Positions 12,275 through 37,865 are shown, numbered from the stretch's first letter. The stretch is 62,359 bases of DNA from a virus (IMGVR_UViG_3300032290_000471:1-62359), one strand, 5' to 3'. Translations and numbers: made by a program. Notes: a model not told the origin generated them from the sequence alone.

Positions 12275-14663
12275 TCTTTTTTCTTATTATTATCCATCTG
12301 CCTACTTGGTCACGTCCCTCCTCAGGCACAGTGCCCTCCTTAAATATAGCGTAAGATACTAACCATTTATAAAACTTTGTCCTGCTTATTGTCATCTTTG
12401 ACTTTGGTCCATAGTCAGGATACTCGTTGATAAACTCATAGTACAAGTCGTTCTTGTATAGCCTTACTCCTGTCTGCAATATTGAGTGATTGGCGCCATT
12501 CTCAATAAGCCCACACCACTCTATAAATTCGTGGCACGTCTCTGCTGATAACTGCCTGATATTCAAGTTAACAAACTTACTCTTGACAAGTCCCGTATTA
12601 AGATATCCGCATAAACAACCAATCATGTAGTTGTCAAACTCGCACCAATCGTCATCGTTCCAATCGCCAAACATCAGCTTACCAAACTCATCAAGAGGAG
12701 TAAACTCCTTGCTGTAGTATTGGTGTAACTCCAATTCCCACTTGCGACGAGCAAACGAGTTGCCCGCTCCCTTGATGGCGTAGTTGGTGGTGATGGCAAT
12801 CTTAGGAGACTTGCTGAACGGAATTTTGATGGCGTCCTTGTTCTTCTTCTCAAGCGTCAGCCCCTCGGTAACTACGCTGAACAAGCGCTCAAAGTCAAAG
12901 TGTTTCTTCACGTCATCAAAGACAAGTATCTGCGTGTCTGCTGATACCAACTGATAGGCGAACGACCGCTCAAAGGTGAACGACTTTCCGTCAATGGTTA
13001 CTACCTTCTTCATCTTACTCAGCGCATTCATGAAAAGACCCTTCCCGGTGCCTCCCTCAGGATTGTCGCTGATGACCTCGTCATTGAGTATAACTGCGGG
13101 GCAAAAGGAAAGGTTCTTGTGTGCGTGAAGCATAAACCCAATAGTCGACTCCATTGATTTTATACGACCTTCATCGCCTCCGCATATGTTTGATATGAAC
13201 TTACGATAGTCGCAGTCATCGGTTACGCTGCACATAGTGAAGTTTCGGTCTATGACATGGTCTTTCCACACATAGCCACCCAAGTCCAAGTAGTCTATAG
13301 GCTTTACCTCGTCATTGGTAATCTTTACAGCACAGTTCTTATAGTATAGATAAGCTGCGTCTTTAGTATCTTCAATGAAATAAATATCAATGGTAGATAG
13401 CATCGAAAGGAACTCCTCCTTAAAAAATCTAGTATTGTCAGCGAAGTAATTATAGATTGATATGTCGTCAAGCTCATATAAATGGTTGAGGACAAAGTCT
13501 TTGATTTCCTTCTCGGAAGTATGGTCTACCAAGTTGTTTGTAACCTTTACGAAGATATAACTCTTGCCTCCTTCGGGATAGAACTTGTAGAACCCATTGT
13601 CCTCTAGGAATTGCTTAAGCAATATGTGTACCACTCTTATGACTCCCCTGTCGTTTATGGTCCAAAATATCTGCTTAGAGTTCTCCTCCTCTACTTTATT
13701 GAGCACTGCGTCTATAATCTCGGGCTCTAAGTCACTCTCCTGCAATTGCAGTCGCACCTCCTTTTTTGATACACCCCTGCGTAGTTTCGCCTTTATGTGA
13801 TTGATGCGTTCCTCGTCCTCGTAGTACTTAGTACCGAAGTTCATCGTGTTCTTGTACGCAGAATCTATCGTGGTAGATATCTCTCTAGAGGTAAAGTCAG
13901 ATGATGAGTATTGGTTCAGCACATATGAGGCGAGCCCCTTGTTGACACCAAAATCATTGAATGCCATAGCAAGTATGTAACAGTTCTGATTGCGTTGGCC
14001 CTCGCTCATCGGATACTTTTTAGACCACCACTTAACAAGTATCTCGGCAATCTTATTCTCGTCGGTAATAGGTATGGTAGGTTGGTCTTTGAACTTGTTA
14101 ACCTCAGTGTACTCGTGCTCCTCAATTAGGTCCCATATTGACGAGTTCTCGTTGATGTATATCAGTGGGTCGTATGACTCGTAGCATACACGGCTTAGGT
14201 TCTTGCTTGTCTTGTCAAAGTATGGAGAGTTAAAGTACTTCTCTAGACTATTGAAGTAGTTGGAGTGGTTCTCAGGGTCCTTAGGTATCCTTACCAATGC
14301 CTTTAGGCCATTCCCTGAAGGAGATATGAACACTGAATAGACATAGTTATTTTTGCTCAGCCTCTCCTTCTCCTGCAACAACTCCTTCTGCTTCTCATAC
14401 CCATCGAAGTCCAAGCATATGAGCCCGCTGTGGTCTATCAGTGAGTTGTCCGCCCTCTTGTTGAAAGTACCGCTGAAGCATATTGCAGGCAAACTCTTTT
14501 TTAGTTCGTTCTTCTCAGCCTTCCTCTTCTCCAATCTAATCTTGTTTACAAGATCCTTGGTGGCTCCGTCCTTTATCCTCTCTAAGATATCGTTGACATC
14601 TCTGAAGAATGGAGTCGAAGTCTCCCTTATATTTTGGAATATAGTGACATTATGTGTCGGCAT
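12222..14663 (-). CDS. Primase-helicase (BT4734/VirE-N AEP-like primase, PriCT, SF3 helicase)
   Basis: LPAICFSGTF, GLICLDFD, FISPSGNGLK, EGQRN, GGTGKG Walker A, VFDD Walker B, ITTN motif C. Confidence 0.88.
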   Translation of the reverse strand: MPTHNVTIFQNIRETSTPFFRDVNDILERIKDGATKDLVNKIRLEKRKAEKNELKKSLPAICFSGTFNKRADNSLIDHSGLICLDFDGYEKQKELLQEKERLSKNNYVYSVFISPSGNGLKALVRIPKDPENHSNYFNSLEKYFNSPYFDKTSKNLSRVCYESYDPLIYINENSSIWDLIEEHEYTEVNKFKDQPTIPITDENKIAEILVKWWSKKYPMSEGQRNQNCYILAMAFNDFGVNKGLASYVLNQYSSSDFTSREISTTIDSAYKNTMNFGTKYYEDEERINHIKAKLRRGVSKKEVRLQLQESDLEPEIIDAVLNKVEEENSKQIFWTINDRGVIRVVHILLKQFLEDNGFYKFYPEGGKSYIFVKVTNNLVDHTSEKEIKDFVLNHLYELDDISIYNYFADNTRFFKEEFLSMLSTIDIYFIEDTKDAAYLYYKNCAVKITNDEVKPIDYLDLGGYVWKDHVIDRNFTMCSVTDDCDYRKFISNICGGDEGRIKSMESTIGFMLHAHKNLSFCPAVILNDEVISDNPEGGTGKGLFMNALSKMKKVVTIDGKSFTFERSFAYQLVSADTQILVFDDVKKHFDFERLFSVVTEGLTLEKKNKDAIKIPFSKSPKIAITTNYAIKGAGNSFARRKWELELHQYYSKEFTPLDEFGKLMFGDWNDDDWCEFDNYMIGCLCGYLNTGLVKSKFVNLNIRQLSAETCHEFIEWCGLIENGANHSILQTGVRLYKNDLYYEFINEYPDYGPKSKMTISRTKFYKWLVSYAIFKEGTVPEEGRDQVGRWIIIRKKNDHEYKADSAHSDDELF

Positions 14664-14664
14664 T

Positions 14665-14818
14665 GTGTCGGTTTTATGTCGGAATTATTTTACTAACTAT
14701 TTGATAATCAATTACTATGTCAATAATGTTAATTTTATCTTTCTTTTATAGCCATAAAAATAATAATAATAATAAGAGAATAATAAAAAAAGTATAGAAG
14801 AAGAAAATTGACATTTCG
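14665..14818. repeat. 154-bp imperfect direct repeat, copy 1 (origin-like element)
   Basis: Aligns with 26046-26199. Confidence 0.85.
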
Positions 14819-14826
14819 ACATGAAT

Positions 14827-14851
14827 AAAAAAGGGGAGCGAACTCCCCTTT
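14827..14851 (-). terminator. Intrinsic terminator after ssb
   Basis: AAAGGGGAG-UUCG-CUCCCCUUU plus U-tract. Confidence 0.8.
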
Positions 14852-14871
14852 GCTTTGGGTTTTTCTGATAC

Positions 14872-15153
14872 TTAGAACGGCAAGTCGGCGTCCTCTTGTA
14901 CCTTTTTGGATTTAGAAGCGGGCGCTGTCTTGGCATCAGCCTTAGGCTTGGCTTCAAAAGTGTCCAACTCAGAGTAGTAGTTGCCACTACGTGCCTGCTT
15001 GATGTTAATGTTTACCCAACCGCCTTTGTCATGCTTCTTCATGAAGGCAATGGCTTCATCAACTTTCATTGATAATCTGCCCACGACAAAGTCAGGGGCG
15101 TTTTCGTTCCTCTTGAAGAGGAATCCGTCTGCGAAGATTTTTTCTTCTGTCAT
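14872..15153 (-). CDS. Single-stranded DNA-binding protein (putative)
   Basis: Small beta-rich protein with acidic DADLPF tail, in the Sak/exonuclease module. Confidence 0.65.
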   Translation of the reverse strand: MTEEKIFADGFLFKRNENAPDFVVGRLSMKVDEAIAFMKKHDKGGWVNINIKQARSGNYYSELDTFEAKPKADAKTAPASKSKKVQEDADLPF

Positions 15154-15230
15154 CTTAAATGGTTTAAATATTGGCGCAATCTGTTAATCTTCGTACCGAA
15201 TCCTTGCGCCTGAACGCAGTACAAAGTATC

Positions 15231-15965
15231 TTAGTCGAGCGTGTCCTCGATGTAGTAATTCAAGATGTCGTCGGTGGCATTTTGACTGAAATACCTGCGG
15301 TATACATCAACAGCCCTCTCAACCTTAGCCTCTCCGCCTCGTAGGAAGCTCTCTGTTGGCCTATAAATACCCAACTGATGTGATTCCTTGTCTATGACAA
15401 AAAAGACCAAAGGTTTGCCAAATAATCGCTCGTAGATAAAACACTGCGAATCGTAGTTGTACGACTTGGCTGAGTACCTGAACTTGTTGATGTCACTTGT
15501 CGTCTTGAGGTCAATGAGCATGGTGTCTGTCTCGATATCGCACTTGCCCTTCCACATCTCACCCTTAATCTCACCGATACCGGGCTTCTCGTAGTTGTTG
15601 CCGTGCTTGTATATCTCATCAAAGAAAACAATATTGCTCTTGATAACCGACACCATTTTATACACATCGTCAACCTCCTTCTTCAGTAGGGCGAACTTTA
15701 TGTTGTTGTCCTCGCAGAAGTTCTTGTACTCCTTGGTGGTGCGTGTACTCACGTCAACCATCTTGAAGTCGACGGCCTTGTGTGGCTCCAACAATAACTG
15801 ATGGAACAGACGGCCCTCGGCAAAAGACTTGTTGTCCTCCCTCGGCTTTCTGAAGTCTTGTGGGTTAGTAAGCAAGGCCCCGATGTCAGAATTGGAGAGG
15901 TAGTTCTTGCCGAGTCCGCTGTAGTACTCTGCGTCGTTTTTAAGCGTCTCAATTATTTGGCTCAT
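15231..15965 (-). CDS. RecE/DUF3799-like PD-(D/E)XK exonuclease
   Basis: LSNSDI, GRLFHQLLLEP, KGKCD, IDLKTT, YDSQ. Confidence 0.8.
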   Translation of the reverse strand: MSQIIETLKNDAEYYSGLGKNYLSNSDIGALLTNPQDFRKPREDNKSFAEGRLFHQLLLEPHKAVDFKMVDVSTRTTKEYKNFCEDNNIKFALLKKEVDDVYKMVSVIKSNIVFFDEIYKHGNNYEKPGIGEIKGEMWKGKCDIETDTMLIDLKTTSDINKFRYSAKSYNYDSQCFIYERLFGKPLVFFVIDKESHQLGIYRPTESFLRGGEAKVERAVDVYRRYFSQNATDDILNYYIEDTLD

Positions 15966-16540
15966 TTTACAAGCAGGTTAATCTCCTTTTGAACAGGAGC
16001 GGTGATTTTATACTTTCGTGATAGTTGGGCAACAATCTTGTCTACGCCCAAAGCCTTGTTGGCTTGTATGTATACCTTCACCTTCTCCCAATTGTCAGAC
16101 TTGGGTGACAACACCTCAAGTTCTTTTGGCTCGGCTACAGGCGTGTCGGCGTCAGGTATATCTTCTCCTGTCCAAAGGAATATACCAAGTCCGTGCATAG
16201 CGATAGCCTTTGCTGTGCTACGCTGAATGGTCTTGTTCACATCCATAGAGGTGACCTTGTCTACGCCAATGGCGTTGTTTCTGAAGTCCATGACGGGCAG
16301 GAAGTCAATGTGTTCTAAGTCGTTGACTGTGATGCCCACCTTTACCCAACAGGTACGCCCATCGGTGAAGTAGTTGAATCCTGTTTGATCGCATTCGTAC
16401 ACCTTACGCTGTGCGTCAGGGTAGTGGGCTTTCAACACGGCCCATGCGTTGGCCCAAGAAATGTAGTCGAGCTGACCTTTGCGCTCAACCTTGTCCTTCA
16501 TGTTGACGGAGGACAGCGTCTGAAAAACTGAATTGCTCAT
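15962..16540 (-). CDS. sak: Sak/Rad52-like single-strand annealing protein (DUF1071-like)
   Basis: LDYISWANAW, LPVMDFRN, KTIQRSTAKAIAMHGLG. Confidence 0.85.
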   Translation of the reverse strand: MSNSVFQTLSSVNMKDKVERKGQLDYISWANAWAVLKAHYPDAQRKVYECDQTGFNYFTDGRTCWVKVGITVNDLEHIDFLPVMDFRNNAIGVDKVTSMDVNKTIQRSTAKAIAMHGLGIFLWTGEDIPDADTPVAEPKELEVLSPKSDNWEKVKVYIQANKALGVDKIVAQLSRKYKITAPVQKEINLLVK

Positions 16541-16553
16541 GTTTGATTTGATT

Positions 16554-16862
16554 TTATGAAGTTAATGATAATCCATCCTGAATCTTGTGAACCATGTTGG
16601 AATAGTCTGCGTCCGCTCTCATCTTCTCATCCATGGCTATTATGCCACGCATGATGGTGGTGTGCGCCGTCTCATACCCGTTGTCAGCCATGCACCTATT
16701 GATGAAGTTGACCTGCATAGGTCGGTGGTAGCATAGGTAGTACAGCGTCTGTCTTGCGTCTACGATATCAGACTTCTTTGACTTGGAGAAAAGCTCTTCC
16801 CTCGTTATGTGGTACTTGCGAATGATGATGTCCACATACTCGTTAAATACATCTCGTTTCAT
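16554..16862 (-). CDS. DnaA C-terminal (domain IV)-like HTH protein
   Basis: LFSKSKKSDIVDARQTLYYLC...AHTTIMRG. Confidence 0.7.
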   Translation of the reverse strand: MKRDVFNEYVDIIIRKYHITREELFSKSKKSDIVDARQTLYYLCYHRPMQVNFINRCMADNGYETAHTTIMRGIIAMDEKMRADADYSNMVHKIQDGLSLTS

Positions 16863-16883
16863 TTGATTGATTGTTAATTAGTG

Positions 16884-16891
16884 CAAAGATA
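16884..16891 (-). promoter_or_regulatory. Bacteroidota -7 box TATCTTTG for the recombination/replication operon
   Basis: TAnnTTTG about 20 nt upstream of ATG 16862. Confidence 0.6.
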
Positions 16892-16897
16892 GTGAGT

Positions 16898-17176
16898 TTA
16901 GTTATCTTTACCAAAAAGTTTATCTATTTGTTTTGTAGCCAATTTAGTGGCGTCAGCAATCTTTTCATATGAAACTACTGTAGCCATGAAAAGTATCTCG
17001 TTATAGTCGAAGTTTTTGTGTATATATTCAGCAATCATGCTCATCCTAGGCGACTCCTTCCCAAAGAAAGCGTCTTTAATTACGAAGGAAACTAAGTCTT
17101 CGTTATGCTTACTAAAATCAGATTGGTTTATACCCAAGGCTTCTGTTGTTGAATCCACATCGTGATTGAATGTCAT
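16898..17176 (-). CDS. Hypothetical protein
   Basis: Likely start MTFNHD at 17176 after an A-rich leader. Confidence 0.6.
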   Translation of the reverse strand: MTFNHDVDSTTEALGINQSDFSKHNEDLVSFVIKDAFFGKESPRMSMIAEYIHKNFDYNEILFMATVVSYEKIADATKLATKQIDKLFGKDN

Positions 17177-17204
17177 TGTATTTGTTTTTTTGATTGTTAA
17201 TAAA

Positions 17205-17335
17205 AGTGGCACTCTCGCAGTTCCCGCGCACCTGCTGTCCTTATGGTATGAAGAACCTAGCGGAACCAAAGTCAGGACAACTATGTCTGAGCCAACCCCG
17301 ATGCAAGGGTACAAGGCAAAGTACTCTCCGCTGTT
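17205..17335 (-). ncRNA. Candidate structured non-coding RNA (pseudoknot potential)
   Basis: GC-rich intergenic stretch with two crossing helices of 7 and 8 bp. Confidence 0.35.
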
Positions 17336-17341
17336 AATTAA

Positions 17342-18310
17342 TCATTTCTGTTTTTTATTCCTATTATTATTGCTACTACTGCGTAGCATACTGATATTAT
17401 TAGAAGTATCGTCATGTAAATCGTTTATTGTTTTGAATATTTTATAGGCCACTTGCGGTACAATCGCATTGCCGTAACCCATTATTGACTCTTTGCGCCA
17501 CCTTGAAAAGGTAATTCCGTCCAATTCGGTGGGAAGCCCATCATCTCCGCCACAAAGCGGGGGTTGAGTTGGGAACTCTTCCCACCATCTTTTGATGCCA
17601 ACCGACTCAGCGTCATGCTGTGCATACTGCCATCCTTCACTTGCGTTGACTTCATTGTCCCTACTGACGATGAACTGTCGAAAGCTGTCGGTGTCGGAAG
17701 CATACGAAACTTCGCCATCTGCTTGAGTGGCATCTGAAGGTTGACCCCCTTGTCCTTGTACTTCTGCTTGTCTGCGTCCCACTTCTCCTGACTCCTCGCC
17801 GTGTTGTAGTCGAAGCGACATGGAGTCGGTAGCAACGAACCAACATCGCTCTCTGCGATGCGGCGCACCGACACTTGCAGCTGCAAGTAATATCGGTTGT
17901 ACTTCGTAGCCGCAACCTTCCAAGTCAGCACACACCTCTTCGAATACCAACCCTCCTGACCAATTAAAGATGCCACGAACGTTTTCGCCCACGACGTAGG
18001 TTGGTCTAATTTCTTGAACAGCTCTAAGCATGTGAGGCCACAAGTGGCGCTCATCGTTTTTGCCGAGTCGTTTTCCTGCGAGTGAGTAGGGTTGGCAGGG
18101 GAAGCCACCTGTAAGGATGTCAATACATCCTCTGTGAATAGTGAAGTCTGTTTGAGTAATGTCATGATAAGAGATTGCGTTTGGCCAATAATGTTTTAAT
18201 ATCTGTCGGGGGAATGGCATCCACTCACAATGGAATACGTTCTGCCAACCCATCCACTCGGCAGCCAAGTCAAAGCCGCCTATACCGCTGAATAAGGATC
18301 CGTGTCTCAT
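17342..18310 (-). CDS. DNA cytosine-5 methyltransferase, alpha polypeptide
   Basis: Motif I FSGIGG, IV GGFPCQ, VI ENVRG, VIII HRRER, X GNAIVPQVA; motif IX not seen in this frame. Confidence 0.92.
   Translation of the reverse strand: MRHGSLFSGIGGFDLAAEWMGWQNVFHCEWMPFPRQILKHYWPNAISYHDITQTDFTIHRGCIDILTGGFPCQPYSLAGKRLGKNDERHLWPHMLRAVQEIRPTYVVGENVRGIFNWSGGLVFEEVCADLEGCGYEVQPILLAAASVGAPHRRERCWFVATDSMSLRLQHGEESGEVGRRQAEVQGQGGQPSDATQADGEVSYASDTDSFRQFIVSRDNEVNASEGWQYAQHDAESVGIKRWWEEFPTQPPLCGGDDGLPTELDGITFSRWRKESIMGYGNAIVPQVAYKIFKTINDLHDDTSNNISMLRSSSNNNRNKKQK
17482..18165 (-). CDS. Nested alternative-frame methyltransferase beta polypeptide (target-recognition region plus motif IX)
   Basis: 227-aa +1-frame ORF with LLPTP/MLPTP and LNPRFVAEMMGFPPNWT. 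Confidence 0.75.
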   Translation of the reverse strand: MTLLKQTSLFTEDVLTSLQVASPANPTHSQENDSAKTMSATCGLTCLELFKKLDQPTSWAKTFVASLIGQEGWYSKRCVLTWKVAATKYNRYYLQLQVSVRRIAESDVGSLLPTPCRFDYNTARSQEKWDADKQKYKDKGVNLQMPLKQMAKFRMLPTPTAFDSSSSVGTMKSTQVKDGSMHSMTLSRLASKDGGKSSQLNPRFVAEMMGFPPNWTELPFQGGAKSQ

Positions 18311-18751
18311 TTAAGTTGAATAGTTTAGTTTATATTTTACGTTGTACACGGGACTGCATAGCCCGCATGATGAGTTGGCTCTAGGTCGTCGGTGCTTGTA
18401 GTGGGTGTGTCCCGCAGGACACACTGCCACCCACTTGCCCTTGATGGTCGCATCGTTTGAACAGCGCTGTCCGTTGCACCCAATATCAATGGCCTTGCTA
18501 CGCCATACGCTGTCGTGACCATGCCCCCTGCCTACCAAGGCGTGAGCAATCTCGTGCAATATAGTGTTTCGTACGTTGTCAGGCTCCCTGATTTTTGTCA
18601 GCGGTGCTGACAAGCCAATGCGTTTCTTGGTGTAGTTACACACGCCGAACCTGCGACGGGCATTGTCAAACTTGAACGTCCAACCGATGTCTATGAGACC
18701 ATGCTCAAGCATCAGCTCAAACGCCAAGTCCTCAGCATCTTGTAGTGTCAT
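18311..18751 (-). CDS. SprT-like zinc metalloprotease
   Basis: RRFGVC, HEIAH, GHGHDSVW, C-terminal Cys/His cluster. Confidence 0.85.
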   Translation of the reverse strand: MTLQDAEDLAFELMLEHGLIDIGWTFKFDNARRRFGVCNYTKKRIGLSAPLTKIREPDNVRNTILHEIAHALVGRGHGHDSVWRSKAIDIGCNGQRCSNDATIKGKWVAVCPAGHTHYKHRRPRANSSCGLCSPVYNVKYKLNYST

Positions 18752-19071
18752 ATGAATGTGATTTGGTTTTTAATTTCATTGATATCTGACTTGGCGCTTA
18801 CGCTGTCACCCTCGTCATCAGCGCCTATGATGACCGCATTGTTGTAGATGGGATATGACCAATAGGGCATTATGAACCCGCCCACAATGTCGTTGGGGCG
18901 AAGAAGTATCTCGTCATCCGAGAACATGGTGTCGTCATTGTCAAACCTTATAGGTGCGCAGAAGCAGGTGCAGTTGTTGCCGATAACACCATACAGTTCT
19001 CTGAAGTCGCCACCCTTCATTTCAATTTCGTAGACGTCTCGTTTCTGTACGTCAATTTTAATTGCTCTCAT
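18748..19071 (-). CDS. DUF3846-like hypothetical protein
   Basis: MRAIKID...LYGVIG...DDE...IIGADDEG. Confidence 0.6.
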   Translation of the reverse strand: MRAIKIDVQKRDVYEIEMKGGDFRELYGVIGNNCTCFCAPIRFDNDDTMFSDDEILLRPNDIVGGFIMPYWSYPIYNNAVIIGADDEGDSVSAKSDINEIKNQITFI

Positions 19072-19258
19072 GTCGTTTGATTTTATAGATTCGTATTCCA
19101 TCGACTACCTCCACGTCGATGTTGTAGTTAAGGAAAAGATTGTTGAGGTTTTCCAAAAATGTTTTGCGGTCATTGTCCGATAGGTATAGGAGTCTGTCAA
19201 TTACTGACTGAAGAATCTCCTTTCTCTCTATCTCAATGTGGTCTGTGTACTTTGTCAT
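19058..19258 (-). CDS. Hypothetical protein
   Basis: 66-aa ORF in operon. Confidence 0.5.
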   Translation of the reverse strand: MTKYTDHIEIERKEILQSVIDRLLYLSDNDRKTFLENLNNLFLNYNIDVEVVDGIRIYKIKRHESN

Positions 19259-19262
19259 ATGT

Positions 19263-19511
19263 TTAGATTGTTAATGTTGGTATTACACCATTGCGCCCAT
19301 AAAATAATACACCTCCGTCATTGCCCTCATCGTCCGATGACAACACACACATCTCGCTGTTGTCTAACATAAAACAGATTGGTCGCTTATACCAACCCAT
19401 CATCTCCATCTCCTCGTCGGTGAGGTATCTGACTTCAGTAATTGTTCTGCCCGCCAATACTTTGTTGGCTACATCGCACCAATGCGATAAGATTTTCATT
19501 TTTTCTTTCAT
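19263..19511 (-). CDS. Hypothetical protein
   Basis: SDDEGNDGGVLF motif. Confidence 0.65.
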   Translation of the reverse strand: MKEKMKILSHWCDVANKVLAGRTITEVRYLTDEEMEMMGWYKRPICFMLDNSEMCVLSSDDEGNDGGVLFYGRNGVIPTLTI

Positions 19512-19522
19512 TGTAATTTGAT

Positions 19523-19768
19523 TTAGTTTTTAATTGTTTTGAAATCATCTTCTGTTATTACCATAAGCACATCCAACTTCTCGCCATAATCTTTGGTTAT
19601 GAAGTGGACGAGATTGCCATCATCTTGCAAGTCATCTATAGTCATCTCCGTCTCCCACCCGTCCTCAATTCTGCTGATGCCAAACTCACGCAAATCTTCT
19701 ATCCCTTTGAAGTAGTATGTAGTTCCATCGTCGCTAAAAATTAATCTGTATATTACTATCTGTTTCAT
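19523..19768 (-). CDS. Acidic hypothetical protein
   Basis: Likely start MKQIVIY at 19768. Confidence 0.55.
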   Translation of the reverse strand: MKQIVIYRLIFSDDGTTYYFKGIEDLREFGISRIEDGWETEMTIDDLQDDGNLVHFITKDYGEKLDVLMVITEDDFKTIKN

Positions 19769-19779
19769 GTTGTTTGGTT

Positions 19780-20139
19780 TTATAGTTCTGCGTTGAATGA
19801 GCAAGAGCCTTGTGCCTCTACACAATCCTTAATCTTGTTGCCCAATATGTAATCGGCATAGTCAGATAGGTCCGTCTCAAGTATGCCATTCTCCTTGAGA
19901 ATTTGGTCGTTGTAGCCTCTGCTACTACCAAAGAAGTCGTCCATTTTCTTCATCCTATCTCCTAACTTATCCTCAATCCTCTTCAGCTCGTCCTTAATAT
20001 CTTGTAGATGACTCTCGTCAAAGTAAAAGTCAACTGATTGTGGCTCGATCATCTCTCCGCCGAATCTTTCTGCGGCTACTGATGATTGCACAGCGAACCA
20101 AAACTTTCCTTCAATGTCTCCGTTGTAATAGCGTCCCAT
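19780..20139 (-). CDS. Hypothetical phage protein
   Basis: MGRYYNGDIEGKFWFAVQSS N-terminus. Confidence 0.7.
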   Translation of the reverse strand: MGRYYNGDIEGKFWFAVQSSVAAERFGGEMIEPQSVDFYFDESHLQDIKDELKRIEDKLGDRMKKMDDFFGSSRGYNDQILKENGILETDLSDYADYILGNKIKDCVEAQGSCSFNAEL

Positions 20140-20184
20140 AATACTTGTACAGTTTTTTATGTGGTGGCTCCACGTTTTTTTTAT

Positions 20185-20505
20185 TTAGAATTGTGTCCAA
20201 TACATGAACTCATCATTATACGCCTCAGATAAGTCCTTGTATCCTTTAAGATTTGCATATAGAAGTGCGTCCTTCTCGTACTTGAAATATTCATCGCCGT
20301 CGCCAACAACCCACCCCTCGTCCATCTCCTCCTTCGTGGCTGAACAGGTCCTGCCATGGCACTCAACAATGTAGCGCTCACTCGGTACTTGCGGTACCTC
20401 CCTAAGCATATCAATAGGCACCTTGTCCATTGCCTCTTGGTCGTCTGCTGCGTCCACCTCAACCGATACAGTTGAAGTCGTGACTAATGTTATTGTGTAT
20501 CTCAT
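20185..20505 (-). CDS. Acidic hypothetical protein
   Basis: Likely start MRYTITL at 20505 overlapping the upstream stop. Confidence 0.55.
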   Translation of the reverse strand: MRYTITLVTTSTVSVEVDAADDQEAMDKVPIDMLREVPQVPSERYIVECHGRTCSATKEEMDEGWVVGDGDEYFKYEKDALLYANLKGYKDLSEAYNDEFMYWTQF

Positions 20506-21032
20506 TTGTATTGGTATAAACTCATTAAACATTTCTTTATATTCTTATCAGCAAACACCTCCTCAATAGATTCGAATCTGCCTGAGCAGTTGCTGCCATT
20601 TACCATGTACGTGACGTAGATGTACGAAAACACACCCTTGTATGAATGCGTAGTACCATCGGGTAGCGTCAGATACTTTGACTCACACACATACTCCCAC
20701 CTTATGTTGTAGCTGTCGTATGGTGAGTTCGGTTTCTTTATCCTGCCCTTAGCGTAATAGATGTCCGACTCATCTGTCGCTATTATCCCCATCCCCTCTA
20801 AGTCCTCGTTGAGCCGTTTCACATCGTCACTGACCTTCGCCTTCATCGCCTTCAGTAAACTCTCGCTGATGGCTTGATGCTCCGCAAGTATCCTTGCTGA
20901 TTCGCCGATGGCGTTGTCAATCTCGTTTCGGTTGATGAGACCATGGCGCGTTGACGCGCCCTCTGTTTTGTTTAGTTTTGCGAACTCGTCTCTGAGGTCG
21001 CTGATAATCTTGTTTTGCTTTGTTGTCAACAT
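20502..21032 (-). CDS. Hypothetical protein
   Basis: 176-aa ORF. Confidence 0.65.
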   Translation of the reverse strand: MLTTKQNKIISDLRDEFAKLNKTEGASTRHGLINRNEIDNAIGESARILAEHQAISESLLKAMKAKVSDDVKRLNEDLEGMGIIATDESDIYYAKGRIKKPNSPYDSYNIRWEYVCESKYLTLPDGTTHSYKGVFSYIYVTYMVNGSNCSGRFESIEEVFADKNIKKCLMSLYQYK

Positions 21033-21050
21033 ACTTTGTTTGTTTATTGG

Positions 21051-22067
21051 TTATATATAATTTGCCTTCTTGTACCACGAGTGGCAGGACTTGCACAGCT
21101 TGGTTTTCTCATCGTGTATCACGTCGCCCCAACAATCTTGACACACACTGCCGTATGGCTCCTTCGGCACGTCCTTGTCCCAATCCCAATCATCCCACCC
21201 GAAGTAGTAGTCGTCCTCAATCTTTTTGGCTTGCTTCACCTCCACGTAGTCATCGTCCCAAAGTGTCTTGACGGCATACTTGCCGTTGGGAGCGGGTGGC
21301 GCTTTGGTATATGACGGCGCTTTGTACCGGTACTTGTGCGAGTACACCGCAGTGCACTGAGAGATGATAGTCATGCACATCTGTAAGCAATCCTCTACGT
21401 CCCACACATTGACATACTCGTCAGCCATGTGAGGTCGGTAGTAGCCACACGACATATTGGCGACTGAACACTTGATACCATTCTGCTTCAACGCCATAAC
21501 ATCGGTCATCATCCCCTGAGCAAACTTGTACCCATGCCTGCTGATGATGGGCTTCACCGCCTCTTGAAAGTCACAGGAGCTGAGGTCGACACCACTTGCC
21601 ACCGTCACGAAGTCATCATTACCCTTGCGGTCACACTGCAACACAAACCTGCAATCCTCAAAGAAGGTCATGTCAGCCACATACGAGCCGTTACACCCCA
21701 CCTCCTCGTCGCGAAAGAACGCCACCTTCATCACGTCAAACCGCTCCAACATCTCAAGGGTGATGTATACACCGACCTTGTCGTCGCCACCGATACCCGT
21801 CTGCTCCATCCTCACCCTATTGAAGCCCGTAATCAGCCCATCAAACTCAATAGGATGCAGGTCCTCAACAATGTCATGAACTGTGTCCATGTGTGACACC
21901 ATGCATGGATATGTGATGGCGTCGCCCTTGGTCACGTAGATATTGCCGTTATGTGTGTATATTGTTGTGTTTGGTATCGCCTTGACACGCCTTACGATGT
22001 ACGCAAACATTCTCCATTGGTCGTAGCTCTCTGATTGTATAGAGAGTACCTCTTTTAGTCGTTCCAT
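21051..22067 (-). CDS. M20/M28-like zinc peptidase with C-terminal Zn-ribbon
   Basis: SHMDTVH, GGDDKVG, DEEVG, QCDRKG, YYRPH, CQDC...CKSC. Confidence 0.85.
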   Translation of the reverse strand: MERLKEVLSIQSESYDQWRMFAYIVRRVKAIPNTTIYTHNGNIYVTKGDAITYPCMVSHMDTVHDIVEDLHPIEFDGLITGFNRVRMEQTGIGGDDKVGVYITLEMLERFDVMKVAFFRDEEVGCNGSYVADMTFFEDCRFVLQCDRKGNDDFVTVASGVDLSSCDFQEAVKPIISRHGYKFAQGMMTDVMALKQNGIKCSVANMSCGYYRPHMADEYVNVWDVEDCLQMCMTIISQCTAVYSHKYRYKAPSYTKAPPAPNGKYAVKTLWDDDYVEVKQAKKIEDDYYFGWDDWDWDKDVPKEPYGSVCQDCWGDVIHDEKTKLCKSCHSWYKKANYI

Positions 22068-22069
22068 AA

Positions 22070-23341
22070 TTATGCTACTTTATTTACGATTGATTCATGA
22101 TAATAGTCCCCATTTACTTCATACGCCTCAGTTCTTAGTATCCAATTGCCCTCGTAGTCCTCTACGCAATCCTCGGTCCTGTAATACTTCTCGTCTCTCT
22201 CGCAGTACACAGCGTCATCGGCAAGTACCCACTCGCCCTCATCGTCAAGGTATCTGATATCGTCATCGTCCTTCTCATACCAATCCCCACTGACCTGCAC
22301 GATATGAGTATCCTCGTCATGAGTGGTCCACACATTACCTCCCACATGTATAGCGTGATTGTCACACACATACTCACCCCGATACTGACCTCTGTCAACA
22401 TAGTACATCTCATCCTCGGGATACTCACGCCCACACACACAGCACTCCATCCACCTTGTGTCACCCTCTCTGCTACCGCCCGTATCATTGTAGGTGTATT
22501 CGCCACTGCCGTAATTATTGAGGGAGTTGTAGTCACCATTTGAGAACGTGTCTATGTATGGGTAGTAGTCCCACTCTGCTTCTCCCTTGTTCTTCGTCCA
22601 CACAATCAGCTTCTTCTCAAACTCACCCTCGTTAGACATGAACATACGCTTGTCGTCATAGGACTTGTAGTTCTTCTTCCAAAACCAATTCTCTTGGTCC
22701 CGAGCATAGTCAATGAACATCTCATAGTAATGCTCCCGAGCCACATACACCCTGTCCATAAACGTCTTGCCCTCAGGCAGTCGCCACAGCAATGCCCGAC
22801 CCGATAGCAATCCCTCGTTGTTGTACATACATAGGATGTCAACGTCAAAGAGGTGGTAGAATGTGAGGTAGTCCCTGTCCCCATTCATACACGAGCCGTT
22901 GAGCGAGGCACCTCCGTCCTCCCTTTTCTCGCAGTACACATCGGGGATGGCTGTGTTCGGCTTGATGACAAATGTCTTCGCCTCAGCCTCACACTTGGCT
23001 TGGTAGAACCTTGCGAACACCTCGTAGTCAGTGTCCTTGAACCGCTTCTGTGCCTTAGGTGTGAGGACCTTACGGATAACACGAGAGGGGCGACCATTTT
23101 GGCGACCTTCTCTTGACCAATCACCTTGGTCATTGACCTTGTGCTCCTTACCTGCGGGTAGGAAACTGATTGTTCCGTCATTTCTGAACGTGAGGTAGTC
23201 AATTTCCTTGTCAGTCACAGCCAACTTGTAGGCATTGTATTGACTCCTTTTAAGCCATACGCACTCATGCAGTAGGCTTGCAATCTTGCTCTCCTCTCGC
23301 TTCTCGCAGAGGAAAGCCCTGAAACTTTCAGAGTAGTTCAT
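22070..23341 (-). CDS. Conserved phage protein (SCM/GRALLW/MDRVY/PYxDT) with acidic Cys-containing C-terminal repeats
   Basis: Motifs visible; likely start MNYSES at 23341. Confidence 0.7.
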   Translation of the reverse strand: MNYSESFRAFLCEKREESKIASLLHECVWLKRSQYNAYKLAVTDKEIDYLTFRNDGTISFLPAGKEHKVNDQGDWSREGRQNGRPSRVIRKVLTPKAQKRFKDTDYEVFARFYQAKCEAEAKTFVIKPNTAIPDVYCEKREDGGASLNGSCMNGDRDYLTFYHLFDVDILCMYNNEGLLSGRALLWRLPEGKTFMDRVYVAREHYYEMFIDYARDQENWFWKKNYKSYDDKRMFMSNEGEFEKKLIVWTKNKGEAEWDYYPYIDTFSNGDYNSLNNYGSGEYTYNDTGGSREGDTRWMECCVCGREYPEDEMYYVDRGQYRGEYVCDNHAIHVGGNVWTTHDEDTHIVQVSGDWYEKDDDDIRYLDDEGEWVLADDAVYCERDEKYYRTEDCVEDYEGNWILRTEAYEVNGDYYHESIVNKVA

Positions 23342-23357
23342 AACTGTTTGATTTGTT

Positions 23358-23380
23358 AGTGTCTTCAAAGACACTCGGTT
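23358..23380 (-). promoter_or_regulatory. Palindromic AGTGTCTT-nn-AAGACACT element, copy 3
   Basis: About 16 nt upstream of ATG 23341; matches copies at 24380 and 25063. Confidence 0.75.
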
Positions 23381-23418
23381 AAGGAATAGAAAATGTGTGG
23401 TTAATTACTAATAATACA

Positions 23419-23426
23419 CAAATATA
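23419..23426 (-). promoter_or_regulatory. Bacteroidota -7 box TATATTTG
   Basis: Consensus match upstream of the palindrome and ATG. Confidence 0.65.
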
Positions 23427-23472
23427 GCACATATTAAGATAACATCCAAATTTATTTGGGTGTTATTTTGTT

Positions 23473-23649
23473 CTACGCCACTATATTTTGTTCCAAAAGT
23501 TGCTCTGCCTTTTGGATGGTGGCATGATACCTTAAATCGTACATGTCCTCATCGTCATAGTCGTAGTAGTTCAAGTTTAGGTATTCACACACCTGCTTGT
23601 CAGTCCAATCCCTGACGATGTTGATGGCTAATTGATACGCGTCTTGCAT
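23473..23649 (-). CDS. Small acidic hypothetical protein (58 aa)
   Basis: MQDAYQLAINIVRDW...; AAATCAAATCAA leader; not in ORF track. Confidence 0.6.
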   Translation of the reverse strand: MQDAYQLAINIVRDWTDKQVCEYLNLNYYDYDDEDMYDLRYHATIQKAEQLLEQNIVA

Positions 23650-23692
23650 TTGATTTGATTTTATGGTTTCGTAGTACGCTAAAGCGTACTAT

Positions 23693-23929
23693 TCAATTAT
23701 GTTTCATCCCACTGCATACGCCGTACCCTTTGCGTTGGGATAATCTGATTATATTGTCAGCCACATCCCGAGGCACCACCTGTATCGTGTTGCCTGTTTT
23801 GTGGTTCGTGATGGGTACGCCACCGACACGCTGAACATTTGAGCAGTTCACGCAGTTCTTGTAGCCGTACCTCGTGAGGCGGAGCAACGGCATAGCCCCG
23901 CCACATTTTACGCAGTTTGTCGTTTCCAT
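23693..23929 (-). CDS. DksA/TraR C4-type zinc-finger protein
   Basis: CVKCGGAMPLLRLTRYGYKNCVNC matches CxxCG..IP..RL......CxxC. Confidence 0.7.
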   Translation of the reverse strand: METTNCVKCGGAMPLLRLTRYGYKNCVNCSNVQRVGGVPITNHKTGNTIQVVPRDVADNIIRLSQRKGYGVCSGMKHN

Positions 23930-24099
23930 TAGTATCCAATTAATCCCGATCTTTTGGAACCAAAGCACGCATTGTTTGGGCAGCCTTTGGCATTTCGGCA
24001 GTTTTTAATGTAGCCGCACGATGATAGTGCGACCATCATGGCGATGCAGGCAATTAGCAATAGGGTTAAGTTGTGGCTGATTTTCTCGTTGTTTGACAT
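23929..24099 (-). CDS. Small Cys-rich lipoprotein (56 aa)
   Basis: MSNNEKISHNLTLLLIACIAMMVALSSC-GYIKNCRNAKGCPNNAC...; lipobox LSSC; TAATG coupling to next gene. Confidence 0.6.
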   Translation of the reverse strand: MSNNEKISHNLTLLLIACIAMMVALSSCGYIKNCRNAKGCPNNACFGSKRSGLIGY

Positions 24100-24110
24100 T
24101 TTACTTGAAA

Positions 24111-24365
24111 TTAAAGGTTATGAAATATGTATAAGATGCTCATAAAGAAGCACATGACTCCACCAACGAAGATGGCAGTCATGTATTTTTCTCTTATCCA
24201 CCCAATACTATGAGCAGATACTCCAAATAACATTGCCGACATTGACCATGTCATTTGAAGGAATAGCATTTGAAAGGGTGTGTTATCCCACGACACGATG
24301 GCGTAGGATGAAATGGTCATGTAGAAGATACTGACCACTGCAAAGAAGATTGATAATGTACGCAT
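24111..24365 (-). CDS. Three-TM membrane protein
   Basis: Likely start MRTLSIFF at 24365; three hydrophobic segments. Confidence 0.65.
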   Translation of the reverse strand: MRTLSIFFAVVSIFYMTISSYAIVSWDNTPFQMLFLQMTWSMSAMLFGVSAHSIGWIREKYMTAIFVGGVMCFFMSILYIFHNL

Positions 24366-24379
24366 TTGATTTGATTTGT

Positions 24380-24403
24380 GAGTGTCTTCAAAGACACTCG
24401 GTT
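24380..24403 (-). promoter_or_regulatory. Palindromic GAGTGTCTT-nn-AAGACACTC element, copy 2
   Basis: About 14 nt upstream of ATG 24365. Confidence 0.75.
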
Positions 24404-24492
24404 TGAAATTAATTGTAGCCGCATCCCACCACAGCACGCCACCACACCCGACCTCATCCGACCACAGCCCGCCATGATAGTATGATAGTGCG

Positions 24493-24521
24493 AAAAAAAA
24501 ATTAGGGGCCGTAGCCCCTAA
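24493..24521 (-). terminator. Intrinsic terminator after first early gene
   Basis: UUAGGGGC-UACG-GCCCCUAA plus U9. Confidence 0.85.
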
Positions 24522-24523
24522 GA

Positions 24524-25048
24524 TTATTTGATTGCTTTTTTGATTTCTTCAATCAGCATGGTGGCGAATTCTTTGGATATTGTACCCGATATTTTTATAT
24601 CGCCCTTCGCACTGCATGAGGCTTTGAACATTTGAGGCTTCGCCTTTGGTTCCTTCACTTCGCCTTCGCCTTCGCCTTCGCCTTCACTTTCTCCGCCCTC
24701 CGCAAATTTTATGAACTTTGCGATTGAGCAAGTATTGCCTTGTGCGTTCTCCATTGCCTCATAATTTTTGCGGGTTTGGGTGTCAATTTTCGCCGCCTTC
24801 ATTATTTTGTAAGCCCATGATTTCTCAATCTTATATTCACCCTTTATAAACTCCTCAATAGTTGGGTAAGGATTGCCTTGCGTCTTGTAGTATTCCTTGC
24901 CTTCATCAGTTTTGAACTTTGGGATATCAACATTTAGAACTTCACCCATTTCAATGGAAATTGCAAATTTTGTTTCTTCGCACTGCTTTAATTTTGCATT
25001 TAATTGTGCGAACTTTGCGAACTGAAAAATTGTTTTTTTGTTGCTCAT
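24524..25048 (-). CDS. First early-arm protein with EG-repeat linker
   Basis: Likely start MSNKKT at 25048; (TTCGCC)4 at 24659-24682 encodes EGEGEGEG. Confidence 0.7.
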   Translation of the reverse strand: MSNKKTIFQFAKFAQLNAKLKQCEETKFAISIEMGEVLNVDIPKFKTDEGKEYYKTQGNPYPTIEEFIKGEYKIEKSWAYKIMKAAKIDTQTRKNYEAMENAQGNTCSIAKFIKFAEGGESEGEGEGEGEVKEPKAKPQMFKASCSAKGDIKISGTISKEFATMLIEEIKKAIK

Positions 25049-25062
25049 GACTTTTGTTTTGT

Positions 25063-25087
25063 GAGTGTCTTTGAAGACACTCGGTTT
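25063..25087 (-). promoter_or_regulatory. Palindromic GAGTGTCTT-nn-AAGACACTC element, copy 1
   Basis: About 14 nt upstream of ATG 25048; an extra half-site GAGTGTCT at 25101-25108. Confidence 0.75.
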
Positions 25088-25127
25088 GTTAATTTTTGGG
25101 GAGTGTCTACTTCCCCGATTGACAATA

Positions 25128-25135
25128 CAAATATA
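25128..25135 (-). promoter_or_regulatory. Bacteroidota -7 box TATATTTG (leftward early promoter)
   Basis: Consensus match next to an AT-rich upstream tract. Confidence 0.7.
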
Positions 25136-25433
25136 AGACACTATTTTAACACTACAAAATTTTTTTTGTGTTTTTTTTGTTTTTTATTAAAAATTTCGTT
25201 TTTATTCAATGAAATGACTATTTTGTTAGATGCCATCTAAAAAACTAACTATTTCATTTGAAATAATTTAATGAATAGGCGAAAAAATTAGAAATGAAAA
25301 TGTAATGGCTAGTAACGGATAGGGATAGACGAAAAATAAAGAACCTAAATTTTGGGAGGGGGTATTGCCCCTATGCGAAAACTAACTAACATTTGTTAGT
25401 TTTTTATTTTTTTCGTGTATGCGAAGCCGTTAT

Positions 25434-25580
25434 ACTAACGGGGATGAACACACGAAACGGGCTGACTAACGGGGACGCGTAGACGAAAGGGGACTAACGG
25501 GGACGGATAGGTGAAACGAATGTACTAACGCACACCCGTACACGAAAACGCCAAAATATCGGTGACGCGTACACGAAAGG
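25434..25580. repeat. Iteron-like ~30-bp imperfect tandem repeats (ACTAACGGGGA...ACGAAA)
   Basis: Units begin at 25434, 25465, 25493 and 25524; partial unit at 25564. Confidence 0.75.
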
Positions 25581-25712
25581 ATCCCCCACCCCCTAATTTT
25601 TTTTTCGGTTTCCATTTCGGGTGCCGAATCGCAAAACGGGTATATTACCCCCACATTCATGGCATCTGATATAAAATGAGTCTTTCATCGGAAACCATCC
25701 GATAAAAGGGTG

Positions 25713-25720
25713 TATATTTG
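25713..25720 (+). promoter_or_regulatory. Bacteroidota -7 box TATATTTG (rightward promoter)
   Basis: Consensus match 20 nt before ATG 25741. Confidence 0.7.
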
Positions 25721-25740
25721 ACTAACTAAAATATTTTACT

Positions 25741-25959
25741 ATGCCAAGATTAAATTTGTCTAACAGCATTTATCAGCAAAAGGGTTCGGGATACGGTTTG
25801 ACTGTTAAGGACGGGATGTTGATTAATAATCGTCCATGTGGTCAGACAGGAATCAAGCAAATTTCCGACATGAAGAAGGAAATCAGACGCCAAGAAAAGA
25901 TCGAAATCGTCGCTCAGGGCATCAACAGAGCAGAGGATATGAAAAAATTTGTGTTTTAA
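25741..25959 (+). CDS. Hypothetical protein
   Basis: 72 aa, own promoter and terminator. Confidence 0.7.
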   Translation: MPRLNLSNSIYQQKGSGYGLTVKDGMLINNRPCGQTGIKQISDMKKEIRRQEKIEIVAQGINRAEDMKKFVF

Positions 25960-25986
25960 TTGTGTGGTTTTACTCGTTTGATTTGG

Positions 25987-26017
25987 GCGGGACTTTTCTA
26001 AGTCCTGCTTTTTTTTT
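25987..26017 (+). terminator. Intrinsic terminator
   Basis: GCGGGACUU-loop-AAGUCCUGC plus U9. Confidence 0.8.
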
Positions 26018-26045
26018 GCAATTATGTATAAATTCGTCGTTAGTG

Positions 26046-26199
26046 GTGTCGTTTTTACGACGATTATTTTTCACTAACTAATTGATTATCAATACTAATG
26101 TCAATAATGTTGATTTTTTCTTTCTTTTATAGTCATAAAAAAATAATAATAATAATAGAGAGAGAGAGAGAGATAGGGAAGAAAAAATTCGACATTTCG
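26046..26199. repeat. 154-bp imperfect direct repeat, copy 2 (origin-like element)
   Basis: Aligns with 14665-14818. Confidence 0.85.
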
Positions 26200-26214
26200 G
26201 TATAAATTTGGTTT

Positions 26215-26496
26215 ATGGCAAGAAATCGCATCAAAGTGGTTTACACAAAATTGGGTAGGGAGAAGGTTTGGGGGCTTGCTCACATTGGTGATAATTTGAT
26301 TGAGTTGGATGCGAGGTTGAAGGGGAAGAAGCATTTGGAGATATTGGTTCACGAGGCGGTGCATCTTCTTCTGCCTGAGGCAGACGAGGAGGAGGTGGTG
26401 AGGGTGTCAGTTGCTTTGACTTTGCTTTTATGGGCTGAGGGGTATAGGCGTGTAGATGGCGATGAGGAAATTTTTTTGCAGGATGGTATGCAATGA
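26215..26496 (+). CDS. Small HExxH metallopeptidase-like protein
   Basis: WGLA...IELD...ILVHEAVH...EEEVV; TAAATTTG box at 26203-26210. Confidence 0.7.
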   Translation: MARNRIKVVYTKLGREKVWGLAHIGDNLIELDARLKGKKHLEILVHEAVHLLLPEADEEEVVRVSVALTLLLWAEGYRRVDGDEEIFLQDGMQ

Positions 26497-26524
26497 CTAA
26501 ATTTGTTTTACAAAATCGAATCAA

Positions 26525-28129: not shown

Positions 28130-28538
28130 GGTGGTGCCGCACGCTGAGTGCTTGATATGTGGTCACAAGTGGGTGGCCATCATAGAGAGTGACCAAATTG
28201 TGTGGCCCGACGGAAAGGTTGACATCAAGTATGTCGACAGGGTTGAGTGTCCGTCATGTCACAAGATGACGACGGTCAAAAGAGATACTGACAAGATGCT
28301 GAAAAAGATTATTGAGGAGTTTCCTGAAGAGAAGATTATCAGGGTAAACAAATTTGACGAGGCTATAATTGGTATCGACGAGGAGAGTATGCGGTTGGTA
28401 TATTCAATTGCAAAGTGCATTAAGATTCTCATGAAAGAAGGGTTAGATGAGGAGACGGCTTATGGGCATTTGTACTTTGATGTAATTGGCGAGAACTTTG
28501 GAGCGCCATACCCTATATGGGTTACCGACAACCTATGA
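28107..28538 (+). CDS. Zn-ribbon plus conserved phage domain fusion
   Basis: CLIC...CPSC followed by FDEAIIG...VYS...PIW. Confidence 0.6.
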   Translation: MRVGVVYEVVPHAECLICGHKWVAIIESDQIVWPDGKVDIKYVDRVECPSCHKMTTVKRDTDKMLKKIIEEFPEEKIIRVNKFDEAIIGIDEESMRLVYSIAKCIKILMKEGLDEETAYGHLYFDVIGENFGAPYPIWVTDNL

Positions 28539-37831: not shown

Positions 37832-37865
37832 GGTAAAAAACGATAAATTTGTAAAAAACAAGAAA

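Follow-up and report, generated by a model that had tools for sequence, protein, structure and literature searches.

A duplicated, repeat-bearing AT-rich element as a candidate pair of replication origins in uncultured Bacteroidota podophages

The DNA analysed here (the window) is the 62,359-nucleotide viral stretch IMGVR_UViG_3300032290_000471, a circularly closed contig of about 62.2 kb in which bases 1-123 recur at 62237-62359. It contains two copies of a non-coding stretch of about 155 nt, designated element E: copy A lies on the side of a primase-helicase gene and copy B on the side of a GroEL gene. Judged from the sequence, the best-supported of the explanations considered is that the two copies constitute a pair of iteron-type replication origins analogous to oriL and oriR of phage SPP1, and it is towards this interpretation that we cautiously lean. 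It is suggested by the anatomy of E, in which facing arrays of short repeats surround very unstable DNA, by the fact that both positions of E are conserved in over a hundred related freshwater phages, and by the nature of the replication protein encoded next to copy A.

Structure of the duplicated element

The original prediction described two look-alike stretches of the same orientation, in which TGTC motifs on the left face GACA motifs on the right around an AT-rich core with a pyrimidine-to-purine switch. The pair was recovered in three ways. When copy A was compared with the window by blastn, 14665-14826 aligned with 26046-26207 (80.7% identity over 166 columns, E-value 8.6e-35), the next-best match having an E-value of 0.009. 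A repeat search returned a 96-nt core (14665-14760 and 26046-26141, 81% identical, 11381 nt apart), and an nhmmer profile derived from the copies together with their relatives matched the window exactly twice, at 14656-14817 and 26043-26198. The arrangement of the motifs, the AT-rich core and the switch were also found as described, whereas the placing of the copies needed some correction. Copy A does abut the start of the primase-helicase gene, which copy B does not, but its left repeat array reaches about 10-17 nt further left, into the first primase codons. Copy B, which had been placed near the point of divergence, is not at that point itself (25049-25740) but about 300 nt to the right of the divergence, behind a small gene and a terminator. 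The coordinates of the two copies, their parts and the neighbouring features are collected in Table 1.

The anatomy of the family was derived from 123 distinct copies (59 from the primase side and 64 from the GroEL side), all written in the plus orientation of the window. Each copy contains five to seven ATGTCGA-type repeats (family consensus ATGTCGAWW), which are direct in the left arm and in the centre and inverted in the right arm. In the family alignment the left arm has two or three repeats whose period is 11 nt (taTGTCGATTTTATGTCGATTT), and is followed by TAACT and then by a two-fold symmetric site, ATTGATnATCAAT. The central pair, ATGTCGAwwATGTCrATTTT, is the best conserved block of the alignment; next to it are a T-rich stretch and a purine-rich microsatellite tract, which is composed of (AAT)n, (AT)n, (AG)n or, in some relatives, (TAG)n, and ends in ATAGGGAA. 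The right arm is formed by inverted repeats (TTCGACATTyCGACAT), one to three in number, that recur every 8 nt.

Repeat slots agreed more within than between elements in 13 of the 15 slot pairs; for example, left repeats of the TGTTA type are paired with right repeats of the TAACA type. In the symmetric site compensatory changes preserve the symmetry (score 0.182 against 0.143 in shuffles that took no account of relatedness, with 0 of 500 shuffles scoring as high), and in some relatives the site is symmetrical with a wholly different sequence. According to nearest-neighbour calculations, copies A and B are ranks 1 and 2 genome-wide for lowest duplex stability when intervals of 40, 60 or 100 bp are considered (example values: -100.6 and -103.7 for the two copies, compared with a genome mean of -130.4, s.d. 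7.5).

That E acts as a small non-coding RNA or as a structured leader was largely refuted, and we regard this as highly improbable. Two observations would suit an RNA: on the plus strand the symmetric site accommodates changes of the G-U type (at one pair, 68 G-U and 35 G-C), and the single-sequence fold of copy B has a z-score of about -2. On the other hand, Rfam gave 0 matches for E, RNAalifold found 0 consensus pairs in the 123 sequences, the single-sequence z-scores as a whole (+0.65 to -2.07) were unremarkable, the 1-nt centre of the symmetric site is too small for a hairpin loop, and neither copy, read in the orientation of E itself, is preceded by a promoter box.

The Bacteroidota -7 promoter box TAnnTTTG was found before many window genes, which served as a positive control, but E contains none on either strand, and none was detected in the stretch from copy A to the primase gene. 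The box that follows copy B is outside the repeated part, and its distance varies in relatives. Because the two downstream operons read E in opposite senses (at one site its orientation is opposite to that of the gene, at the other it is the same), a promoter or leader of fixed geometry is unlikely. E could instead be a platform for transcription control, on which a DNA-binding protein, such as a helix-turn-helix protein resembling DnaA domain IV, would occupy the repeats and the symmetric site and switch on, or block read-through into, two delayed operons (primase on the minus strand, GroEL on the plus strand), autoregulation of the primase being included. This is the most serious of the alternatives, although it seems to us rather unlikely. 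It would account for the position of each copy immediately downstream of a strong terminator and upstream of the next operon. The primase gene has no host-type promoter and must therefore be read through E or from inside it, and the -7 box after copy B lacks a -33 element (TTTG) at the normal distance, which is what an activator-dependent promoter would be expected to show. Domains of the DnaA type, moreover, can act as transcription factors. The same reading is difficult to reconcile with the opposite orientations of E relative to the regulated genes, with the spacing between copy B and the promoter or gene that follows it, which in relatives ranges from about 80 to about 650 nt, and with the finding that no promoter box is conserved inside E; and the extreme helical instability and the facing arrays exceed the needs of an operator. 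A regulatory platform and an origin are not mutually exclusive, since origins often double as regulatory sites.

Table 1. Positions of element E, its parts and associated features in the window
Feature	Position	Strand	Remarks
Element E, copy A	14648-14826	+	Between the primase-helicase ATG (14663-14661, minus) and the terminator of the upstream minus-strand gene
Copy A, left arm	14655-14682	+	Three direct TGTCGG at 14655, 14666 and 14677; 11-nt period; the first inside primase codons 2-4; family consensus taTGTCGATTTTATGTCGATTT
Copy A, two-fold symmetric site TTGATAATCAA	14701-14711	.	Preceded by the conserved TAACT
Copy A, central repeat pair ATGTCAATA + ATGTTAATT	14717-14734	+	9-nt period; most conserved part of the family alignment
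Copy A, T-rich stretch followed by purine-rich tract; contains (AAT)n	14735-14806	+	Least stable duplex of the genome; rank 1 at 40, 60 and 100 bp
Copy A, right arm	14807-14822	-	Two inverted repeats, ATGTCAAT and ATGTCGAA (minus-strand reading); 8-nt period
Intrinsic terminator of the minus-strand gene 14872-15153	14830-14851	-	Directly right of copy A
Element E, copy B	26043-26207	+	Between the terminator of plus-strand gene 25741-25959 and gene 26215-26496, then GroEL
Copy B, left arm	26046-26065	+	Partly degenerate: GTGTCGT then TACGACGAT; jointly a small inverted repeat
Copy B, two-fold symmetric site ATTGATTATCAAT	26081-26093	.	
Copy B, central repeat pair ATGTCAATA + ATGTTGATT	26098-26115	+	
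Copy B, T-rich stretch followed by purine tract; contains (AAT)n and (AG)n	26116-26187	+	Second least stable duplex of the genome
Copy B, right arm	26188-26195	-	Inverted repeat ATGTCGAA; a second, degenerate repeat after it
Host-type -7 promoter box TAAATTTG	26203-26210	+	5 nt before ATG 26215; just outside copy B, not in the repeated element
Intrinsic terminator	25985-26010	+	Directly left of copy B
Primase-helicase, 813 aa	12222-14663	-	BT4734-like AEP primase, PriCT_1, DUF5906 (SF3/D5-type helicase), predicted C-terminal winged helix at about 707-794; candidate repeat binder
D1, 102-aa DnaA-domain-IV-like protein	16554-16862	-	Pfam Bac_DnaA_C 33.8 bits (cut-off 31.5); TIGR00362 positions 353-435; aligned to Aquifex DnaA 225-312
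D2, 167-aa protein	5909-6412	-	Sub-threshold match to DnaA domain IV; helix KDHTTIVYY close to the DnaA recognition helix
93-aa protein	14872-15153	-	Ends in the acidic tail DADLPF; no family match
Exonuclease (15231-15965) and Sak-type single-strand annealing protein (15962-16540)	15231-16540	-	
VRR-NUC / Hjc-like nuclease	7444-7683	-	Possible junction resolvase

Conservation in relatives and stray copies in bacterial genomes

The closest named relative of the phage is MW202828, an uncultured podophage from a freshwater spring, whose primase is 78% identical; more distant named relatives are phages of Flavobacterium, Nonlabens, Cellulophaga and Bacteroides. In one viral collection a relative of the primase is encoded by 418 stretches and a relative of GroEL by 478. 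The original prediction had named alignment of the two copies and a search in related genomes as ways of checking it, and both bore out the observation itself: besides the identity of the copies given above, syntenic copies turned out to be kept across the phage family. For 72 related contigs, 200 nt or more of DNA upstream of the primase gene were available; 70 of these carry E within 300 nt upstream of that gene, always inverted relative to the primase, and the other two, counted as misses, appear E-like by eye. E was found upstream of GroEL in 67 of the 80 GroEL contigs; of the 13 misses, nine have upstream DNA shorter than 400 nt, and in the remaining four the DNA is long enough but gave no match. 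The element has the same orientation as GroEL in 66 of these 67, the one in L106 (214-360) being inverted. Eight related loci carry both copies, in the same orientation and 8.2-10.9 kb apart. The relatives that keep the 155-nt element at the two syntenic places have primases which are 68-85% identical. No near match of E was found among deposited phages and none in plasmids, and the Flavobacterium phage elemoF has no E upstream of its primase.

Two further observations were made on single relatives. An extra partial and inverted copy of E stands beside the full one in L126 (3799-3889), and a stretch of L002 (7416-7493), about 2.5 kb upstream of the primase gene, is 79-83% identical to the tRNA-fMet of Flavobacteriaceae and is either a phage tRNA gene or an attachment site.

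In 6 of 12 two-copy genomes the element's own partner was in the top 4 of 63 by similarity; with a per-genome chance of about 0.06, such an outcome is unlikely to be accidental (binomial arithmetic). This fits copy-to-copy correction or co-evolution with one binding protein.

The microsatellites of E vary in length and type among relatives. It is at (AAT)n, (AT)n or (AG)n tracts that assembly unitigs (window positions 14723-14792 and 26128) and the contig ends of L015, L017, L047, L057, L073 and L086 stop inside E. Ends of this kind could indicate that E is some other cis site of the phage, namely a signal for packaging (pac) or for end processing, or a site where recombination by the exonuclease and annealing protein pair preferentially takes place. 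The solitary E in a decayed integrative island (see below) could be explained in the same way, for such hitch-hikers keep ori or pac sites of helper phages. We nevertheless consider such a function improbable: the contig breaks are explained by the microsatellites, the terminase gene (40493-42562) is 14-26 kb away from the copies, and the linkage of copy A to the primase gene in 70 of 72 contigs would be unexpected. Furthermore, the contig depth in run X1, the one run in which the phage is present, was flat (10.7-23.7) across 12.5-28.5 kb. Because there was no doubling of this contig depth between the copies, a long terminal repeat bounded by them was rejected as well.

Bacterial genomes were scanned with a 20-mer taken from the central pair, and 37 loci were obtained. 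Four of them hold a full E by profile; two others (L193 and L164) have only short partial seed matches and were taken for chance. The four full elements are in one phage contig binned into a genome (L184), in two short contigs and in one 685-kb contig of a Flavobacteriaceae genome (L185, G001:C1:586077-592481). The latter genome has a single E, and no primase relative was found in it with the query used. Its solitary E is located in a 6.3-kb stretch poor in open reading frames (ORFs), between a tRNA-fMet gene and a pseudo-copy of 70 of its 74 nt, and the pseudo-copy is adjoined by an 84-aa ORF with weak integrase matches; a SAM riboswitch and a DUF2200 gene are also present in the island. By its sequence features the island looks like a decayed integrative element, or satellite candidate, that kept E. 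The solitary element, a single case in the 151 genomes sampled, is in keeping with a portable cis-acting site and hints at the host group of the phage. In the 151 genomes, which belong to the family of G001, a clear E was present only in G001, two further matches having E-values of about 6e-4 to 8e-4.

The possibility that E is a copy of the host oriC was considered on this Flavobacteriaceae contig and rejected: the cumulative GC-skew minimum and the gene-strand switch are at about 60-65 kb and the densest cluster of canonical DnaA boxes at 175.6 kb, E is at 588 kb, and dnaA is on another contig.

Candidate binding proteins and a possible mode of action

The primase domain of the protein encoded next to copy A matched the BT4734-like_N and PrimPol (AEP) models and not those of the DnaG/TOPRIM type. 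Its last 150 residues, folded together with 50 relatives, gave a predicted winged helix (pLDDT 78.7). When this model was compared with 48161 chains, the tied top rows included the RFX DNA-binding domain (Z 5.9), and the origin-binding domain of P4 (1ka8) came at rank 8 of the 48161 as a weak match (Z 5.4, root-mean-square deviation 3.1, 71 residues).

Two other proteins of the phage, D1 and D2, resemble domain IV of DnaA. D1 is present in 52 of 81 primase loci, and its recognition helix is variable; from its sequence it is a candidate repeat binder or regulator. A model of D1 folded without an alignment was poor (pLDDT 62.7) and was not used. D1 and D2 might instead act on the host origin.

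If E is an origin, its repeats would be bound by a phage protein, the candidates being the winged-helix end of the primase-helicase and possibly D1 and D2. The bound protein would open the AT tract, after which the helicase would be loaded and the primase would make the first primers. Extension of these primers is ascribed to the host polymerase, with no match to a DNA polymerase family among the ORFs scanned, which were part of the total. By analogy with SPP1 oriL and oriR, copy A, beside the initiator gene, would be the primary origin, and copy B, which heads the late-strand genes at a distance of 11.4 kb, would be a second origin or a protein-bound fork barrier. Such a barrier, together with the exonuclease, the annealing protein, the SSB-like protein and the VRR-NUC nuclease, would shift replication from circles to concatemers.

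Several observations weigh against the interpretation of E as an origin. Both copies are just past terminators at operon heads, which would fit a regulatory site as well, and a -7 box follows copy B at once; AT-rich, repeat-bearing DNA is also typical of promoter regions. The match of the predicted winged helix is weak and tied with many generic winged helices, and a Foldseek search with it returned nothing at E <= 0.001. Its putative recognition helix is near-invariant, yet positions 4-6 of the repeats vary. Neither was there a clean pattern linking the repeat variants with the recognition helices of D1 or D2. Within-genome similarity of the partners was absent in 6 of the 12 two-copy genomes, and relatedness was disregarded in the shuffle controls for slot agreement as well as in those for symmetry.

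A more elaborate form of the origin interpretation, which we put forward only tentatively and think quite unlikely, is that of a split initiator. In this scheme D1 and D2 would read DnaA-box-like 9-mers of the TTATCGACA type in E and recruit the AEP primase-SF3 helicase to the trinucleotide melting tract. E would then be a re-coded phage version of the bacterial box-plus-trio module, portable and present twice, on either side of the early gene block, with the two copies evolving in concert. Portability is included because the solitary E is found in the decayed tRNA-fMet island of the Flavobacteriaceae genome, as if it had been borrowed by a satellite.

The genes of the window fall into a plus-strand set with terminase, portal, virion and tail-fibre genes and a minus-strand block with replication and recombination genes. 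The acidic tail of the 93-aa protein encoded to the right of copy A is like the acidic tip of bacterial SSB. The stop context of its gene, TTAGAAyGG, was seen beside the terminator in most relatives, and the terminator hairpin itself is kept at the equivalent place in most of them. The operon that follows copy B (26215-29176) encodes a 93-aa HEAVH (HExxH) protein, GroEL (534 aa), a PD-(D/E)XK nuclease and a GroES-like protein. The tail-fibre gene (37752-39263) contains collagen-like repeats of 9-nt period (Gly-X-Y codons) at 38242-38506. An open frame of about 2700 aa extends across the circular junction, from 59447-62359 into 124-5307; it had no significant Pfam match and, on the part scanned, no PHROG match, and probably encodes a giant virion or internal protein.

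Other repeated motifs were noticed in the early region. Six GC-rich 25-nt repeats resembling ACTAACGGGGACGCGTAGACGAAA, with a period of about 31 nt, occupy 25310-25578 in the divergent early promoter region. They were considered as the real origin and rejected, as they are not conserved: of 48 related upstream regions, only 6 had an array of any kind according to TRF, the units being unrelated, and the closest relative, L082, had none. A 34-nt element with the perfect hairpin or palindrome GAGTGTCTTCAAAGACACTC is present three times, at 23347-23380, 24370-24403 and 25053-25086, and its copies end 4-5 nt before the ATGs of minus-strand early genes (23341, 24365 and 25048); in the leader RNA this element may function as an operator for translation or processing. 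Similar palindromes, GTGTCTTnAAAGACAC, occur in relatives, once in place of the terminator beside E (L070, L080, L081). Near the right arm TATAGGGA resembles a T7-type promoter, a reading that was dropped, there being no match to a single-subunit RNA polymerase family among the ORFs scanned.

E provides a concrete origin candidate for a large uncultured family of freshwater Bacteroidota podophages with genomes of about 60 kb, and, should the origin interpretation be correct, a further, unrelated replication-protein family would be added to the phages with two origin-like modules (SPP1, P4). The recurrence of the two-module layout suggests a general role for the second copy, one candidate being the fork-barrier or concatemer-switch function that has been put forward for SPP1 oriR. 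For binding assays, the repeats, the winged-helix domain and the two DnaA-domain-IV-like proteins are delimited in sufficient detail.

Comparison with known replication systems

In the portions of the SPP1 literature used here, this phage is described as having two origins about 13 kb apart, each with direct repeats as well as an AT-rich unwinding element and both bound by gp38; oriL is inside the initiator gene, whereas oriR is in a non-coding stretch between transcription signals (PMC6316719, PMC3485210). In the same portions it is proposed that a fork stalled at the gp38-bound oriR triggers concatemer synthesis, with the participation of an exonuclease, an annealing protein, SSB and a junction resolvase (PMC6316719, PMC3485210). 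The layout in the window is similar: the distance between the copies is 11.4 kb, copy A adjoins the start of the initiator gene and overlaps with it, and copy B has a terminator on one side and a promoter on the other. Genes of four kinds are also alike, those for the exonuclease, the Sak annealing protein, the protein with the SSB-like tail and the VRR-NUC/Hjc-like nuclease. In contrast, SPP1 uses gp38, the loader gp39 and the DnaB-type helicase gp40, whereas the phage studied here has an AEP primase-SF3 helicase fusion; no match to a DnaB-type helicase or to the gp38 and gp39 families was found among the ORFs scanned. The repeat sequences differ as well, and the arrays of E face each other.

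The replication of phage P4 requires both ori and crr; crr is a block of the P4 repeat sequence without an AT-rich core of its own. The original prediction suggested a two-site origin of this kind. The origin-like anatomy of E is in agreement with that suggestion, and two separate cis sites with shared repeats are found here too, but the parallel fails in two respects. The primase of P4 alpha is of the DnaG type and that of the present phage is an AEP (BT4734-like), as in pRN1, and both phage sites are complete duplicates. Because each of the two has its own AT tract, SPP1 oriL and oriR are a closer precedent than P4 ori and crr. As regards the protein, P4 alpha and ORF904 of pRN1 are described, in the sections of the two papers drawn on here, as combining primase, SF3 helicase and a C-terminal winged helix in one polypeptide (PMC2777425, PMC4889955). 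According to these sections the winged helix binds the origin in the D5-family helicases and P4 alpha, and that of ORF904 was described by reference to RFX and P4 (PMC2777425, PMC4889955). The order AEP, PriCT, DUF5906 and predicted winged helix in the phage protein is comparable, and the tied best matches of the latter included RFX and, weakly, P4 1ka8.

Some features of E are reminiscent of bacterial oriC. The complement of the E repeat, TTATCGACA, is one position off the DnaA box TTATnCACA, an (AAT)n or, in some relatives, (TAG)n tract comes after the central pair, and the phage encodes DnaA-domain-IV-like proteins. The differences are that the deviation from the DnaA box is at one fixed position, that the trinucleotide tracts begin about 25-30 nt after the central pair, whereas the box-plus-trio model asks for at least three NAN trios within about 16 bp of a box, and that the DnaA-like proteins of the phage are without the AAA+ domain that reads trios. 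The phage shows no enrichment of canonical DnaA boxes (69 were counted, 83.8 ± 8.1 being expected), and in a Flavobacteriaceae contig clusters of canonical boxes and E-type repeats sit apart.

In the origins of staphylococcal pathogenicity islands (SaPI) and phage-inducible chromosomal islands (PICI), two sets of repeats flank an AT-rich region and are bound by Rep or by an SF3-type primase-helicase. E shares with them the repeats around a melting region and has an SF3-type helicase as a candidate binder, but they are single origins on satellites, whereas E is present in two copies on a lytic-type phage of 62 kb. A two-copy origin-like layout is already known from SPP1 and P4.

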